A stretch of 13,900 nt of DNA from Armatimonadota bacterium (GCA_016235455.1 JACRKZ010000146.1:1-13900), one strand, 5' to 3'. Positions 8,672 through 13,899 are shown, counted from the first letter of the stretch. A program made the numbers and translations. The notes: a model not told the origin generated them from the sequence alone.

Positions 8672-9730
8672 ATGCGTGGCCTGATCGTTGCGTTCCTTGC
8701 CGTGCTCATGCTGGGCGGCTGTGCGCCTAAGCCACCGGCCGACTCGGCGCCGCCCGCCGGTGCCAAGCCGGAGCCGGCCAAGGCCAAGAGCGAAGCACCG
8801 TCCCCGGGCACGAAGCTGCGCTTCGCCGTAGTGCCCAAGCAGAAGGACAACCCCGTCTTCGCCTACGCCAAAACCGCTGCCGAGCGGCGCGCGAAGGAAC
8901 TGGGCGTCGACCTGGTGTGGGACGCGCCGAACGCCAACGACGAGGCCAAACAGGCCGAGATCGTCAGCACGCTGGCCGACCAGGGCGTCAACGGCATCGC
9001 CTTGAGCTGCTCCAACCCGGCCACGCTGAAGAACGCCATCGACAAGGCCGAAGCCAAGGGTATTCCGGTCATCTGTTGGGACAGCGACGCGCCGACCTCC
9101 AAGCGCCGCGCCTTCTACGGCATCGACGACCAGGCCACCGGCAAGCTGCTGGGCGAGGAGATGGCGCGGCTGCTGCCCTCGGGCGGCAGCGTGATGATCC
9201 TCAGCGGCGTGCAGGGCGCCCAGAACCTGGAGAGCCGGATCAAGGGCGTCAACGAGGCACTGGCCGCGGCCAAGGGCATCAAGGTCCTCGGTGTGCAGTA
9301 CTGCAAGGACGATGTCACCACCTCGGTGCAGATGATCGGCGATGTGATGAGCAAGCACCCCGACCTGGGCGGCTGGGTCATGGTCGGCGGCTGGCCGCTG
9401 TTCGCCAAGAACGGGCTGGACGCCATCAAACCCGGCAAGACCAAGGTGGTCGCGGTGGATCCGCTGCCCGAGGCGCAGAAGTGGCTCGAGAGCGGCCATG
9501 TTCAGGTCTGTGTCGGCCAGAAGGTCTTCGGCTGGGGCAGCGAGAGCATCAGCATCCTCAACGCGCTGGCCCAGGGCAAGCCGGTGCCGGGCATGGACGC
9601 CAAGGGCTTTGTCGATTCCGGTGTGGACATCGTTGTGCCCAAGAAAGAGGGCGCCTACACCGACGCCAAGTACATCGACCTGCCCACCTACCGACAGCAG
9701 TTCGAAGCCGCGGCCGGCGGTAAGTCATAG
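8672..9730 (+). CDS. Sugar ABC transporter substrate-binding lipoprotein (RbsB-like)
   Basis: SD GAGGA then ATG 8672. Lipobox LGG-C, Pro/Ala/Lys linker, then VVPKQKDNPVF, QAEIV, AIDKAEAKGIPVICWDSD, GIDD..G, NLESRIKG and GQK, matching the periplasmic-binding-protein type I fold. Confidence 0.9.
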   Translation: MRGLIVAFLAVLMLGGCAPKPPADSAPPAGAKPEPAKAKSEAPSPGTKLRFAVVPKQKDNPVFAYAKTAAERRAKELGVDLVWDAPNANDEAKQAEIVSTLADQGVNGIALSCSNPATLKNAIDKAEAKGIPVICWDSDAPTSKRRAFYGIDDQATGKLLGEEMARLLPSGGSVMILSGVQGAQNLESRIKGVNEALAAAKGIKVLGVQYCKDDVTTSVQMIGDVMSKHPDLGGWVMVGGWPLFAKNGLDAIKPGKTKVVAVDPLPEAQKWLESGHVQVCVGQKVFGWGSESISILNALAQGKPVPGMDAKGFVDSGVDIVVPKKEGAYTDAKYIDLPTYRQQFEAAAGGKS

Positions 9731-10714
9731 CAGCCCGCGGTCACCGAACCGTCGTGGCCGCGGCTGCGGCAGCGGCGGGTCGCTGAGCACGCGCATCCAG
9801 CCCCAGGCGCCGGGCCAGGAGTCGATCAGCTTCTGGCCCGCGGCGGTGCCCATGACCGAGGCGGCGGTGGACAGCCCGTCCGACACGGCGCCCTCCACCG
9901 CGATGACGTTGGTGGCCACGCGGCTGGTCAGGCCGATGCCCGTGCGCGGGTCGACCACGTGCGAGTAGCGCACGCCACCGACGATGACGTACTGCATGGT
10001 GTCGCCGGAGGCGGCCACGCCGCAGTTGCTCAGTTCCAGGTCGCGGCCGTTCTCGAAGCCCACGACCCAGCCCACCTTGCCTGGCGGCGGGTCGCCCAGG
10101 ACGATATCGCCGCCGGCCTCGAACAGGCAACTGGCGCAGCCGTTGGCCCTCAGCACGGCCACCGCCTCATCACCGATGAAGCCCTTGGCAATGCCGCCGA
10201 GGTCGAGCTTCATGCCGGCCAGTTCCAGGCGCGCGGTGCGGGCCGCTGGGTCGAGTTGGACATGCTGCCAGCCGACGCAAGCCAGCGCCCGGGCGCGGGC
10301 CTCCGCCGTGGGCAACACGCCAGACCGTCGGGCAGCGCGCCACAGGGCCACCACGGGCCCGACGGAGGCGTCGAACGCGCCTCGGCTCTGGCGCCACATC
10401 TGGTCCGACTTGAGCAGCACGCGCCACAGATCGTCGCTGACACGTACCGCGGCGCCGCCGGCCGAGGCATTGAGCCGGCTGAGTTCGGAATTGGCGCGGT
10501 AGTCGCTGAGCGTGGCATCGAGCGCCTTGACGCGCTCAAAGGCCGCTTCGCAGGCCTGCTCGGCCACTTCGCGCCGGGGCGCATAGACCACCAGTCTCAC
10601 CCGCATGGCCATGTGGATCTGGGCGTAGGCGTAGCGCGCCAGAGCCGGTTCGCCGGCCGTGGCCGGAAGGGCGGACACGACGGCGAGCAGCAGAGGGAGA
10701 AGTCGGCGAGGCAC
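9725..10714 (-). CDS. apbE: FAD:protein FMN transferase (flavin transferase)
   Basis: Likely GTG start 10714 with SD AGGAG 9 nt upstream. Signal peptide PRRLLPLLLAVVSALPATA; motifs SDYRANSELSRLN, GAFDASVGP, KLDLGGIAKG, GGDI, AASGD, HVVDPRTG and SDGLSTA. Confidence 0.92.
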   Translation of the reverse strand: MPRRLLPLLLAVVSALPATAGEPALARYAYAQIHMAMRVRLVVYAPRREVAEQACEAAFERVKALDATLSDYRANSELSRLNASAGGAAVRVSDDLWRVLLKSDQMWRQSRGAFDASVGPVVALWRAARRSGVLPTAEARARALACVGWQHVQLDPAARTARLELAGMKLDLGGIAKGFIGDEAVAVLRANGCASCLFEAGGDIVLGDPPPGKVGWVVGFENGRDLELSNCGVAASGDTMQYVIVGGVRYSHVVDPRTGIGLTSRVATNVIAVEGAVSDGLSTAASVMGTAAGQKLIDSWPGAWGWMRVLSDPPLPQPRPRRFGDRGLL

Positions 10715-10736
10715 GGTGGTCTGCTCCTGCTCCCCG

Positions 10737-10759
10737 ATTGTAGCGCCGCGCGCGGCGCT
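10737..10759 (-). promoter_or_regulatory. Candidate apbE -10 box (TACAAT) abutting a perfect 18-bp palindrome
   Basis: Minus-strand TACAAT at 10742-10737, 22 nt from the GTG. AGCGCCGCGCGCGGCGCT at 10742-10759 is self-complementary. Confidence 0.4.
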
Positions 10760-10873
10760 GGTGACGATTCGGTTACGCCCGCCGGCCTCTCGATGCAACC
10801 CGGGCGGGCTTGGCGTCGTCGGTACATGAGGCGACTGGCAAACGTCCGTCACAGATGGGATAGTGCCAAGCAG

Positions 10874-10882
10874 TGGTACAAT
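10874..10882 (+). promoter_or_regulatory. Candidate extended -10 promoter for the FGE-fold gene
   Basis: TGGTACAAT (TGn+TACAAT) lies 22 nt upstream of ATG 10905, followed by SD GAGGAG. Confidence 0.5.
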
Positions 10883-10904
10883 GTCGCCGAGGAGTGGGAT
10901 AGAC

Positions 10905-11759
10905 ATGCACGGACGCCGTTTTCGACTGTGCGGTGCCTTGGTGCCCGTGGTCGCGCTCATACTGGGCAGCGTTGGCCCGGTTGCGGCCCAGGAACTGAAA
11001 CCTTTCACCGAGAAGTTGCCCAAGAGCCTGGGCAAGTTCCCGCTGGTTGTTGTGCCCGCGGGCAAGGTGACGCTCGACGATCCGGCCAACCCCGGTAAGC
11101 AGGTGACGGTTGAGGTCAAGCCGTTCTACCTGAGCAAGACCGAGGTGCGTTGGGACGAGTTCGGCCAGTGGGTCTATCGGCTCGATCTGAGTGATGCCGA
11201 TGCCGCCGCCGGCAAGGACGCCGCCAACCGGCCGAGCATGCCCTACATCCCGCCCGACTGCGGATTTGGCACCGACGGCTTCGCCGCCATCTCGCTGAGC
11301 TTCCTCAACGCGACCAAGTACTGCGAGTGGCTGACCAAGATGACCGGCCACAAGTACCGTCTGCCGACCGAGGCCGAATGGGTCTGGGCGTGCCTGGGCG
11401 GCGCTGAGAACAAGCCGCTGTCCGCCGCGGAACTGGAGAAGGTGGCCTGGTTCGGCAAGACCATGAAGAACCCCAACAAGCCTACCGAGGATCCCGGCCC
11501 TATGCCAGTGGGCAGCAAGGACGCGAATGGCTACGGGCTGTTCGACATGCTGGGCAATGTGCGCGAGTGGTGCGTGGGCATCGACGACAAGCCGGTGGCC
11601 AAGGGCGGCGGTTGGGCCGACGACGCCGAGCACTGCCAGGCAACGGCGCGCTTCTTCTTCTCGCCTGACTGGCAGAAGACCGACCCGCAGAACCCCAAGA
11701 GCAAGTGGTGGTTGTCCGACGCGCCGTGGGCCGGCTTCCGCGTGGTGTGCGAGCCGTAG
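10905..11759 (+). CDS. Secreted FGE-sulfatase-fold (SUMF1/EgtB/PvdO family) protein lacking the FGE catalytic cysteine pair
   Basis: Signal peptide ending VAA-Q. Motifs VPAG, VKPFYLSKTEV, ATKYCEWL, YRLPTEAEW, NGYGLFDMLGNVREWC, KGGGW and GFRVV. Only one Cys where true FGE has the CxxxxC pair. Confidence 0.88.
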   Translation: MHGRRFRLCGALVPVVALILGSVGPVAAQELKPFTEKLPKSLGKFPLVVVPAGKVTLDDPANPGKQVTVEVKPFYLSKTEVRWDEFGQWVYRLDLSDADAAAGKDAANRPSMPYIPPDCGFGTDGFAAISLSFLNATKYCEWLTKMTGHKYRLPTEAEWVWACLGGAENKPLSAAELEKVAWFGKTMKNPNKPTEDPGPMPVGSKDANGYGLFDMLGNVREWCVGIDDKPVAKGGGWADDAEHCQATARFFFSPDWQKTDPQNPKSKWWLSDAPWAGFRVVCEP

Positions 11760-11781
11760 TCGGCCGCAACCCAGGCTATAG

Positions 11782-11820
11782 CGCAAGCGCCGCGTGGGCC
11801 CTGCCAGCGCGGCGTTTGCG
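11782..11820. terminator. GC-rich hairpin between convergent genes, probable bidirectional terminator
   Basis: CGCAAGCGCCGCG (11782-11794) pairs with CGCGGCGTTTGCG (11808-11820) with one G-U; inner TGG/CCA extension; followed only by ATTT, so the U-tract is short. Confidence 0.55.
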
Positions 11821-11834
11821 ATTTGGGCTCGTGT

Positions 11835-13447
11835 CTAGCGCCAGTCGGCCAGCGGCGTGAGGTCCGGCGTTGGCGCATCGGGCACGGGCGAGAGCAGGAT
11901 GGCGATGCGCGTTATGGTCGCCTTCTCCGCCAAGGCCACGGTCAGCTTGGTGATACCGTTGAGCGGTCGCTGCGGCGGGGTGGTCAGCGCGGGCCCGGCG
12001 GCAAAGGTGGCGCCCGCTGGCGACAGCAGTCGCGCATGGAGCCGCTGCCCAGCACGCTCCAGGACCGCCTTGGTGCCATCGACGGTGATCTGCGCCGCGG
12101 AGTGCGCGCCCCAGACAGCCGCGACCGGCTGGTCAGCCTCAATCTCATCCACCAGCAGCACATCGCGTCGCCCGAGCAGCGCGTAGCCACGCTGCACGCG
12201 CCGGGCCATGGGGTAGGCGGCGCTCAGGTCCACCACCGCGCGAGCGTAGGTCGGCGTAGTGTGGAAGGCGACGATTGGTGCTTTGGCTGCGGTGTTCTGG
12301 TTCTGTCCGTCGATCACCAGGCAGTTCTGCCCTTCGGTCCGCAGTCGGTAGTAGTTCCAGCGCTGGCCGCCGAAGTAGCCGGGCAGGTTGTAGTCGTCGC
12401 CGCCCAGGTCGCAGAAGAAGCGCTGACCGAGCGCGTCGAGAACGAAGCAGCCGAGGTCGAGGTGACTGTGGTTGGCTCGGTTATCGCCGCCCTTGAAGGC
12501 CAGCCAGGCAGCTTTGGGGTCGGACCAACTGCCACGCAGGAAGCCGACCTGGACACCGTTGAACAGCGCGTCGAGCGGTACGCCGCCTCGCTCGGGATCG
12601 GTGCCGCCGGGCTGGAACCAGGCCAGGTCGAAGGCCTTGCCCTTGGACAGCGTGTGTTCCTGCCAGTAGTACAGTGGCTTGCCGTAGCGCCGACCGAGCC
12701 AGAACAGGCATTCGGCCTCACCGGCACCGGCGCCCGCGTCCGCGTAGTTGAACACCTCACCGGACGGACCCACGAAGTGCAGCCGGAAATCGCCGGCCTG
12801 GTCGAGCCCCGCCGCTTTGGTCAGGCCGAAGTCGGTGCCCAGCGCGGTGTCGAGCGCGGCCAAAAGGTACACCGTGTAGCTGGTGGCGTAGTTCCAGTAG
12901 CCGGGGCCCTCGTTCCAGCCGCCGTCGGGCGCGTAGGAGGCCACGGCGCGATGCCTTTCTCGCGCCAGCCGGCCAGGATGGCCTCGCGGTCGGCGCCGAC
13001 CAGCAGCGGCTGCAGCCAGTCCCAGCCGATGCCGAAGGCATTGTTCAGCTCGGCCACGTCGAGGAAATGGCTGGGATTCCACTTCGGCCAGCCCGCCGCG
13101 GCGACCATCTCGCGCACGGCGCGGCGGCCCGCCTCCTGGTCGCCGTCGAGCCGGTAGAGCAGGGCCAGCGTGCTGACTCGGGCCAGCACGCTGCGGCTGG
13201 CGCTCAGCAGGCGCGGCCCGATGATCTCGTACTTGGTGTCCGGTGCGGTGAGCAGCTTGTCGCGTTCGGCGCGCAAGCGGTCGTGCCAGCGCTTGGCGGT
13301 GGCATCGGTGGCGATGTTGTGGCGGATGCCATCCAGGTCGCTGTCCAGCAGCATCAGCCGCGGATGGCCCGGCCGCAGCGTGGCCAGCGGGTCGGCGGGC
13401 ATTTGGCCGACGGTGAGCATCAGCGGAACGAGCCAGCAGAGCGCCAT
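11835..13447 (-). pseudogene. Heparinase II/III-family (polysaccharide lyase-like) gene disrupted by frameshift and probable internal deletion
   Basis: N-terminal half from ATG 13447 (SD AAGGGGG; signal-like MALCWLVPLMLTVGQ, HPRL, RLL..SR, WNPSHFLDVAE..GIGWDW..EKGIAP) is in one frame and ends at TGA 12821 after about 40 out-of-frame residues. The C-terminal half (SYAPDGGWNEGPGYWNY, FNYAD, KGGDNRANHSHLDLGCFVLD, DLGGDDYNLPGYF) is in another frame ending at TAG 11835. The switch is at about 12944-12950. Confidence 0.8.
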
Positions 13448-13458
13448 GGGAGTCCCCC

Positions 13459-13899
13459 TTACTTGATGAGCCCCGGCCAGAAGTCGTAGGGTCTGAAGTC
13501 GAAGGCCAGGCCGGCGAGGTTCCAGAATGCGCCGACCACGAAATCGCCCAGCGTGAGGCCGAGGAAGTACGGCACCCACCGGCGATAGACGGGCAGGCCG
13601 CCGTAGCGCAGCATGGTCCACTTGATGCCCGCTGCCAGCACCAGGCAGAGCCACAGCTGCTCGACTCCCCAGGAGTTGGCGATGGCGTAGCTGAGCGGGT
13701 GCAGCGGCCAGCCGATGAGACGCACGCGCGCCGCCCCGAGTACCAACGCGATGCCGAACCCGGCGCCGGTGGCCCACAGGTGTGATGCGTCGGCGCGCTT
13801 GGGCGCCTTGAGCCAGGCCTCCAGTTGGCCAAAGGCCTGGCTGCCGAACTGCGTGCCCCAGGTGTTGACGTTGCCCGTGGCGGAGCCGTAGTGGTAGTA
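13459..13899 (-). CDS. C-terminus of DUF6785/DUF6784-like polytopic membrane protein, 5'-truncated by the window edge
   Basis: Frame open from the window end (YYHYGSATGNVNTWG...) to TAA 13459. GWPLHPLSYA, IKWTMLRYGG..YRRWVPYFLGLTLGD and several TM segments; family assignment is from recall of this motif set. Confidence 0.7.
   Translation of the reverse strand, partial: YYHYGSATGNVNTWGTQFGSQAFGQLEAWLKAPKRADASHLWATGAGFGIALVLGAARVRLIGWPLHPLSYAIANSWGVEQLWLCLVLAAGIKWTMLRYGGLPVYRRWVPYFLGLTLGDFVVGAFWNLAGLAFDFRPYDFWPGLIK

Follow-up and report, generated by a model that had tools for sequence, protein, structure and literature searches.

The window analysed here, a stretch of 13.9 kb which comprises the whole of contig C93 of an Armatimonadota bacterium (genome of 6.5 Mb in 185 contigs, 93% complete), harbours an apbE gene and, head-to-head with it, a gene encoding a presumably secreted protein with the fold of formylglycine-generating enzymes (FGE). 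We consider it rather probable that this pair encodes a flavin transferase together with its dedicated substrate and that the latter represents a new class of ApbE substrates. Flavinylation by ApbE is the known bacterial route by which flavin is fixed to proteins outside the cytoplasm, and we rate the present case as this known system with a new substrate fold, a relaxed recognition motif and a new physiological context. An earlier note on this DNA had put forward the FGE-fold protein as the substrate of ApbE; computational support for this proposal comes from the linkage of both genes, from a flavinylation-like motif, from co-folding of the two proteins and from the lack of a known substrate. 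Linkage, motif, fold and docking are computed results from which we infer the attachment of FMN and Ser111 as its site.

The gene pair and its two presumably secreted products

The apbE gene (9725..10714, minus strand) starts with GTG and encodes the 329 amino acids of a predicted secreted FAD:protein FMN transferase of the ApbE1 type. The FGE-fold gene (10905..11759, plus strand) starts with ATG and encodes the 284 amino acids of the proposed substrate, a presumably secreted and non-catalytic protein. Divergently oriented, with starts at 10714 and 10905, both genes are separated by a spacer of 190 bp (10715..10904), which bears out the arrangement described in the earlier note; as is often the case for known substrates, the FGE-fold protein is encoded next to apbE. 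The two TACAAT boxes reported there were also located within this spacer, each 22 nt ahead of its start codon, namely at 10737-10742 on the minus strand for apbE and at 10877-10882 on the plus strand for the FGE-fold gene. In either case the intervening 22 nt contain a GGAG-type ribosome-binding site. TACAAT is found three times on the two strands of the window compared to an expectation of 0.74 (200 shuffles), and two of these three copies fall inside the spacer. Since a two-hexamer sigma-70 scan of positions 9500-12000 returned no promoter, the boxes are without an accompanying -35 match. The divergent spacer of a same-genus relative (L099:2300-2520) has TACACT instead of TACAAT before both genes, about 24 nt ahead of the start of the FGE-like gene and about 10 nt ahead of the chosen ApbE start.

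The ApbE protein matches the Pfam family PF02424 with an E-value of 5e-65 (220.1 bits, cut-off 25.6), the domain beginning at residue 35. Its N-terminus shows, by eye, a basic stretch, a hydrophobic stretch, PATA/GE and no lipobox cysteine, which suggests a signal peptide of approximately residues 1-20 (VPRRLLPLLLAVVSALPATA; 10655..10714, minus strand). The N-terminus of the FGE-fold protein, read in the same way, has a basic stretch and a hydrophobic stretch followed by VAA/QE, indicating a signal peptide of approximately residues 1-28 (10905..10988, plus strand). Both N-termini look Sec-type, in agreement with the signal peptides that the earlier note had assigned to the two proteins. All of 40 cluster-linked ApbEs possess S236, H252 and D279, and at least 90% of them also have D203 of the GGD motif. 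S236 belongs to the SGD motif of the active-site serine region (S236-G237-D238; 10001..10009, minus strand), of which G237 is invariant as well and D238 conserved in at least 90%. H252 (9959..9961, minus strand) is the equivalent of the general-base histidine and aligns with the HxxDP histidine of solved ApbE/FmnB structures. The nearest solved structure is that of Listeria FmnB (7esa, E 8.6e-35), and the Ser/His/Asp residues as well as the residues of the GGD/E metal site align with FmnB and Ftp. The roles of the Ser/His/Asp residues, including that of the general-base histidine, are described in PMC12052999. Judged by the conservation of Ser/His/Asp and GGD, the ApbE of the window looks active. 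SGD is present in 36 of the 40 cluster-linked ApbEs, compared to SGN in all five distant-locus ApbEs of Bacteroidia, which are presumed to be housekeeping enzymes.

The FGE-fold protein has PF03781 as its sole Pfam match (E 8.1e-24, 85.1 bits, cut-off 23.3) and thus contains none of the known substrate domains FMN_bind, DUF2271 and DUF3570. Its AlphaFold model (alignment A1) reaches a pLDDT of 85.2 and a pTM of 0.83, with residues 1-30 below a pLDDT of 60, and is matched by Foldseek to 2y3c (TM 0.61), to PvdO (5hha, TM 0.59) and to human FGE (TM 0.56, E ~1e-13). With FGE (SUMF1) it has in common the PF03781 domain, the fold and the core motifs RLPTEAEW and GNVxEW, but it lacks both the copper-binding catalytic cysteine pair and an aligning C-terminal catalytic region. 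None of its seven cysteines (positions 9, 119, 140, 163, 223, 244 and 282) forms part of a CxxxxC pair, as the earlier note had stated. Only C140 is conserved across the FGE-like subfamily, no conserved cysteine is found in the region of the pair, and the profile matches to solved FGEs end at profile position 223, ahead of the region which we take to contain the catalytic cysteines in the alignment. The subfamily is further characterised by the signature D260-PQNPKSKWW-L270 (11682..11714, plus strand), which is found across loci and of which D260, P261, P264, K265, S266, W268, W269 and L270 are invariant. A search for homologues of nearly the same length yielded 1548 proteins at E <=0.001, the best 120 of which are 42-86% identical to the query. 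In its own genome the subfamily is represented by a single copy; the genome contains ten FGE-sulfatase matches in total, the other nine of which are distant, with only three detectable by tblastn (26-27% identity).

The best NCBIfam match of the FGE-fold protein (57.5 bits) is to PvdO, which is involved in pyoverdine maturation (NF051459, dihydropyoverdine dehydrogenase). PvdO adopts the same fold, is likewise without the FGE cysteines, is linked to an oxidation step and resides in the periplasm, where the FGE-fold protein is presumably located as well. The score is, however, far below the cut-off of 500 bits, so that the protein is not a member of this family, and no pyoverdine genes are present here. 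A non-catalytic function within the cell envelope, as we propose it for the FGE-fold protein, is also exerted by PorK/GldK and GldJ, FGE-fold lipoproteins of type IX secretion which have a structural ring role. In the case of GldK (TIGR03525) the score of 55.1 bits compared to a cut-off of 350 also speaks against membership. We know of no link of PorK/GldK to ApbE and of no flavinylation-like motif in these proteins.

The flavinylation-like motif and its predicted docking to ApbE

The recognition motif of ApbE is given in PMC12052999 as D-x-x-[S/T]-G-A-[S/T], the last Ser/Thr being the modified residue. Members of the FGE-like subfamily contain a segment D-A-x-[ST]-R-P-[ST]-x-P-Y whose spacing equals that of the recognition motif and which in the window protein reads D105-A-A-N-R-P-S111 (11217..11237, plus strand), with S111 as the proposed FMN attachment site. 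This motif, which extends over the whole subfamily and is canonical in four orthologues, adds support at the sequence level that the earlier note had not seen. When 102 members (101 loci and the window; L120 lacks the region) were aligned with MAFFT, all 102 showed S or T at position 0, i.e. in the S111 column. Of these members, 97 have D at position -6 and 80 have S or T at position -3. Position -2 is taken by R in 58 members and by G in 21, position -1 by P in 95 and by A in 7. The motif counts for the loci are alignment-based, a count by regular expression having missed 88 of 240 proteins, mostly from other FGE subfamilies. The fully canonical form D-x-x-[ST]-G-A-T occupies the same columns in four members from Bacteroidia (L054, L060, L064 and L088), and a cytochrome-fusion homologue (P0161) has DAVTGAT at the motif. 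The shorter pattern [ST]G[AS][ST] was found in six of 84 FGE-like open reading frames (ORFs), at scattered places. In the corresponding segment of PvdO (5hha), the nearest solved structure to align in this region, the sequence is D-G-D-T-R-P-G, so that D, T, R and P are common to both, but a Gly occupies the column in which the FGE-like subfamily has the invariant Ser/Thr. A co-variation of D238 of ApbE with the Arg at position -2 was considered and rejected, as SGD is also present where position -2 is G, K, A or Y.

Some tolerance of ApbE towards deviations from the canonical motif is reported: exchanges of G to A and of A to V still permit about 50% flavinylation, and the exchange of D to A has minor effects (PMC12052999). 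The systems with an FMN_bind substrate (NqrC, RnfG, NosR, PceC, PplA) resemble the present one in several respects. In both, an ApbE with Ser/His/Asp and GGD is present, which is presumably secreted here too, the motif comprises seven residues with Asp first and the modified Ser/Thr last (PMC12052999), and extracytosolic electron transfer is the role which we also propose for the FGE-like protein. They differ in that those substrates combine the FMN_bind fold with a G-A motif, whereas the FGE-like protein has an FGE/C-type-lectin-like fold and usually R-P.

Co-folding of the two proteins, a check suggested in the earlier note, turned out in favour of the substrate assignment. The prediction comprised mature ApbE (residues 21-329, 40-row alignment), FAD, Mg and the mature FGE-like protein (residues 29-284, 36-row alignment); the alignments were unpaired by species and no interface was supplied to the model. 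A score of 0.81 was obtained (0.82, 0.78 and 0.81 in the individual runs), compared to 0.00 for the best of three controls. This score expresses the confidence of the model, and its mark is reached by 116 of 157 solved complexes and by two of 215 mismatched pairs in a calibration that was carried out without ligands and without custom alignments. At least 78% of the contacts are common to the runs, and the pLDDT of the partner is at least 88. The predicted interface is centred on residues 103-116 of the FGE-like protein, i.e. on the motif, and on the ApbE side is formed by residues 197-204 (GGD), 216-221, 233-241 (SGD) and 269. The contacts of lowest error are made by residues 104-108 of the FGE-like protein with residues 197-204, 216-220 and 233-235 of ApbE. 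In this prediction the D105-S111 motif docks onto ApbE where the conserved motifs GGD and SGD of the enzyme are located. To our knowledge there is no solved complex of an ApbE with its substrate which the model could have memorised.

These results also bear on a different function of the enzyme, which might act as a flavin-trafficking FAD hydrolase as in Treponema and release free FMN into the periplasm, the FGE-fold protein binding flavin non-covalently or not at all. FAD pyrophosphatase activity is reported for the Treponema flavin-trafficking protein (PMC4767422), the Treponema pallidum structures 4xdt and 4ifu are the second-best solved relatives of the window ApbE (E ~1e-30), and a canonical substrate was not found in the genome. 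Still, the nearest solved relative is the transferase FmnB, the predicted complex sets the motif against GGD and SGD, and an invariant Ser/Thr within an ApbE-like motif that is canonical in some orthologues would be unexpected for a non-covalent binder. We therefore regard such a hydrolase function as very unlikely.

Conservation of the pair and search for a known substrate

The neighbourhood of the FGE-like gene was surveyed in a same-phylum set of 41 genomes including its own (35 of the 41 having a completeness of 90% or more and a contamination of 5% or less) and in the best 80 of 561 relatives from named genomes, confirmed by a pattern scan among 608 candidate stretches. The named loci stem from Planctomycetota, Armatimonadota, Verrucomicrobiota, Bacteroidota, Acidobacteriota and Gemmatimonadota. 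Outside the own genome, 17 of the 22 same-phylum loci have an ApbE gene no more than 1.6 kb away from the FGE-like gene, in 16 cases divergently oriented. Among the remaining five, two loci end at the upstream contig edge (L109 and L120), in one the operon continues past two dehydrogenase genes and one TIM-barrel gene to an ApbE gene 4.7 kb downstream, and two belong to genomes which carry a window-type ApbE on another contig. Of the 80 named loci, 31 have ApbE somewhere in the flank, 30 of them at a distance of at most 3.2 kb; if only those with at least 3.2 kb on both sides are considered, it is near in 19 of 52. Homologues are thus enriched beside apbE, as one would expect from the proposal made in the earlier note.

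The phyletic pattern in the same-phylum set is consistent with this linkage, although the counts are not independent since the 41 genomes are related: an FGE-like protein is present in 21 genomes, all of which have ApbE, while ApbE is present in 29. Of nine ApbE loci examined in the eight ApbE-bearing genomes without an FGE-like protein, eight match a second ApbE type better (see below), and the ninth, L147 (the second hit of genome G031), matches the window type alone, with 27% identity.

A known substrate for the window ApbE could not be identified. FMN_bind, Rnf, Nqr and NosR are missing among the 13 window ORFs scanned with Pfam, and since these ORFs hold no known ApbE substrate, the corresponding observation of the earlier note is confirmed. 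In the own genome no FMN_bind (PF04205) and no NqrB/RnfD (PF03116) was matched, and FMN_bind is found in none of the 41 related genomes although 29 of them have ApbE. DUF2271 (PF10029) gave five matches in the own genome, all below threshold (best 25.1 bits compared to 27.3). DUF3570 (PF12094) gave none in a search which found this family in no control genome either. The pattern D..[ST]G[AS][ST] occurs 55 times in ORFs of at least 100 amino acids in the own genome; ten hits were inspected and none resembles a flavinylated domain. A multihaem cytochrome c (C90:9634-11907, minus strand) whose C-terminal part is thioredoxin-like contains V-D-T-T-T-G-A-T, a canonical-looking ApbE motif outside the known substrate domains. 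A canonical substrate elsewhere in the genome as an explanation for this ApbE was accordingly not found.

By the definition of Meheust et al. 2021 (PMC8238504) the genome is an orphan-ApbE genome. Three ApbE substrate domains are described, and in that survey about 4% of ApbE-bearing genomes were left without a substrate. As these 4% stayed orphan after the addition of DUF2271 and DUF3570, further substrates remain to be identified (PMC8238504). The reasoning applied there to these two families was the same as here, namely ApbE without FMN_bind next to a conserved neighbour, and they too have a conserved [S/T]GA[S/T]-like site; their fold and partners differ from those of the FGE-like protein. 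FGE, sulfatase and formylglycine are absent from the main text of PMC8238504, whose supplementary cluster tables could bear on novelty. No paper joining ApbE with FGE-sulfatase was found in the literature searched, and the papers returned for ApbE together with formylglycine appear to be unrelated.

With these data the possibility that the two genes adjoin by chance, ApbE serving a canonical substrate encoded in the unassembled 7% of the genome while the FGE-fold gene is unrelated to it, can be weighed. The genome is incomplete and split into 185 contigs, and its ten FGE-sulfatase matches mean that FGE-type genes are common in it. This explanation is nevertheless already contradicted by the neighbourhood counts, ApbE linkage recurring over six named phyla. 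Furthermore, FMN_bind is missing from the entire same-phylum set including its 35 genomes of high completeness, and the FGE-like subfamily is single-copy in the genome. Hence, we attach hardly any credence to it.

Partner genes, proposed electron transfer and further observations

Clustering of all ORFs of the 80 named loci revealed that the commonest neighbour of the FGE-like gene is not ApbE but a Gfo/Idh/MocA oxidoreductase of about 440 amino acids with a TAT signal. In 50 of the 80 loci its gene comes next downstream, in the same orientation, and in 54 it is found somewhere in the flank; a gene for a xylose-isomerase-like TIM-barrel protein with a TAT signal is present in 21. Of the 22 same-phylum loci, 12 have the dehydrogenase gene after the FGE-like gene; it is missing beside the pair in the window and in the relative from the same genus. 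These usual operon partners, unseen in the earlier note, are absent beside the window copy. Both families, and the PF06439 hydrolase family found fused to ApbE (see below), are known from the periplasmic 3-keto-glycoside pathway (BT2156-BT2159 of B. thetaiotaomicron, AL1-AL4 of Alistipes), in which a TAT-exported Gfo/Idh/MocA dehydrogenase that keeps its NAD(P) locked in place is joined by a TIM-barrel protein resembling sugar isomerases and by a 3-keto-disaccharide hydrolase of the DUF1080 family (PMC8121099; bioRxiv 10.1101/2024.03.25.586180). The available parts of these papers mention neither an FGE-fold protein nor ApbE and propose a redox-neutral recycling of the cofactor. The dehydrogenase of the FGE-like loci represents a distinct subfamily, scoring 28.9-38.6 bits compared to the BT_2158_fam cut-off of 750.

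A role of the FGE-fold protein as a redox partner, as the earlier note had envisaged it, gains support from repeated fusions to c-type cytochromes, while the electron path itself, including its direction and partners, is what we infer from the operon partners. Among the 120 longer FGE-like homologues listed, eight combine a PSCyt1 cytochrome c (PF07635) with the FGE-like domain, 14 the FGE-like domain with a NapC/NirT multihaem cytochrome (PF03264) and one (P0181) the FGE-like domain with YceI; the rest are mostly kinase-linked FGE domains of other subfamilies. Six cytochrome/YceI fusions were inspected and keep the subfamily motifs, the YceI fusion P0181 only in degenerate form. In the Opitutales loci L059 and L067 a cytochrome-FGE-like fusion is divergent from ApbE. 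In Flavobacteriaceae the gene order is FGE-like, a small secreted YceI-like protein (PF04264) and ApbE, without a dehydrogenase; the YceI-like ORFs (L033:975-1520, L039:10966-11508, L081:10975-11535) contain a conserved S-T-R-G-A-T.

From these observations the following mechanism may be drawn. Sec-exported ApbE would use FAD to attach FMN via a phosphoester to Ser111 of the Sec-exported FGE-fold protein, this residue being part of a variant recognition motif D-A-x-[S/T/A/N]-R-P-[S/T]. Having lost the FGE cysteine pair, the FGE-fold protein would act as a periplasmic electron carrier with covalent flavin and not as a formylglycine-generating enzyme. In most relatives it would be co-transcribed with the TAT-exported Gfo/Idh/MocA dehydrogenase and the xylose-isomerase-like TIM-barrel protein. 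The tethered flavin would re-oxidise the tightly bound NAD(P)H of the dehydrogenase and pass the electrons on to c-type cytochromes, so that periplasmic glycoside oxidation would become a respiratory reaction. That the FMN-bearing FGE-fold protein provides the electron outlet of TAT-exported Gfo/Idh/MocA glycoside dehydrogenases is a model which we put forward tentatively, as one we would not yet call probable. It would include that lineages with R-P keep a co-evolved, dedicated ApbE and that Bacteroidia, gut genera among them, retain the canonical site and rely on an ApbE from another part of the genome, presumably a general one. The proportion of members with ApbE within 3.2 kb is 38/57 for motifs with R-P, 7/21 for other motifs with P at position -1, 2/16 for G-P and 0/7 for [GS]-A, and in the G-A/G-P group all five genomes checked encode ApbE elsewhere. 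This is suggestive of canonical sites using an ApbE encoded elsewhere, presumably the general one, and of divergent sites needing their own.

Instead of the FGE-fold protein, ApbE may modify another component of a 3-keto-glycoside system, i.e. the Gfo/Idh/MocA enzyme, the DUF1080 hydrolase or an unseen protein, with the FGE-fold protein as an unmodified accessory such as a lectin-like sugar-binding or scaffolding subunit. Gfo/Idh/MocA is indeed linked to the FGE-like gene in more named loci than ApbE (54 compared to 31 of 80), and structural FGE-fold proteins without catalysis exist, as exemplified by PorK/GldK. Moreover, among 18 longer homologues of the window-type ApbE nine are fused to PF06439 (3-keto-disaccharide hydrolase) and one to a TIM barrel (PF01261), and at 15 of 21 loci the second ApbE type is a neighbour of Gfo/Idh/MocA paralogues with a TAT signal. 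Yet [ST]G[AS][ST] occurs in just five of 68 Gfo/Idh/MocA ORFs and in two of 21 and none of four TIM-barrel ORFs, at scattered positions, and a scan of 14 longer ApbE homologues, among them all nine PF06439 fusions, did not reveal the full motif D-x-x-[ST]-G-[AS]-[ST]. The only conserved ApbE-like motif of the cluster is that of the FGE-like protein, and it is this motif which the co-fold docks onto ApbE. Finally, no Gfo/Idh/MocA gene is present within about 1.5 kb on each side in the window and in eight of the 17 ApbE-adjacent same-phylum loci. On balance, we deem modification of another component unlikely, though less so than the hydrolase function considered above.

Several observations weigh against the FGE-fold protein being the dedicated substrate of this ApbE. 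The window sequence DAANRPS has just D(-6) and S(0) in common with the canonical motif and, with N, R and P replacing S/T, G and A, is of the least canonical kind; the canonical motif is thus not present in the window protein. The invariant Ser/Thr could serve structure or metal binding instead. The relation between motif class and adjacency of ApbE is confounded by phylogeny, as the G-A/G-P forms are mainly from Bacteroidia. No ApbE is near in 33 of the 52 fully flanked named loci, and no fusion of ApbE with an FGE-like protein is found among the 18 longer ApbE or the 120 longer FGE-like homologues listed, an empty search of this kind being weak evidence. The window pair is without adjoining Gfo/Idh/MocA and TIM-barrel genes, and in the rest of the genome Gfo/Idh/MocA is matched at 33-36% identity at best. 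The absence of DUF3570 is weak, since that search was blank in all controls, and stems from a genome of 93% completeness; the co-fold score, as said, is a confidence of the model.

If the assignment is true, the FGE-like proteins would form a fourth class of ApbE substrates, distinguished by a relaxed recognition motif and by a fold that is not known to have been linked to flavins. This would account for the ApbE1-type gene in those 21 of 41 genomes which have the pair, all 41 being without FMN_bind. It would also bear on how periplasmic Gfo/Idh/MocA dehydrogenases with non-exchanging NAD(P) dispose of their electrons, a question raised in PMC8121099 and bioRxiv 10.1101/2024.03.25.586180. Soil, water and gut bacteria from six or more phyla possess members of the family. 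A widespread unrecognised respiratory module of the periplasm may be at hand, through which the oxidation of sugars and glycosides outside the cytoplasm feeds the respiratory chain. A variant motif with its dedicated transferase could, in addition, broaden the toolbox for flavin-tagging of proteins (PMC12052999).

The fusion proteins of ApbE mentioned above are P0242-P0246, P0248-P0250, P0253 and P0254. Four of the nine fusions with PF06439 also carry an alpha-L-fucosidase, and at L018:6649-9954 (minus strand) a single ORF of ApbE, PF06439 and alpha-L-fucosidase lies beside an FGE-like gene. In three of the fusions SGAT is present at the junction following the ApbE domain.

The genome of the window contains two ApbE genes. 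The other one (C77:35681-36586, minus strand) belongs to the second ApbE type, which is also found at loci L121-L140. This type has no signal peptide (by eye, two sequences), has GG[ST/H/A]S in place of the GGD/E metal motif in all seven cases and shares an operon with one to four TAT-signal Gfo/Idh/MocA paralogues at the 15 of 21 loci counted above. Within this second Gfo/Idh/MocA group [ST]G[AS][ST] is present in eight of 31 ORFs, none of the occurrences being conserved. The second type could be a cytoplasmic ApbE which modifies TAT cargo before its export or an ApbE which is not a transferase. At L129, L132 and L134 from the same phylum it adjoins, together with its two dehydrogenase paralogues, a gene whose product combines a CxxCH haem motif with a DUF2231 membrane domain and which is followed by one for an NlpC/P60 protein.

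Further window ORFs were assigned by Pfam to an LVIVD-repeat protein, a cytoplasmic Gfo/Idh/MocA oxidoreductase, an L,D-transpeptidase, an M23 peptidase with FtsX and FtsE, a GT2 glycosyltransferase, a sugar ABC permease with its binding protein and a heparinase II/III-like gene; no sulfatase was detected among the 13 ORFs scanned. The heparinase II/III-like gene (11835-13777, minus strand), which lies downstream of the FGE-like gene, is split over two frames which overlap near 12821-12900, the N-terminal ORF spanning 12821-13777 and the C-terminal ORF, which contains PF07940, extending from 11835. This split reflects a frameshift, a sequencing error or a pseudogene.

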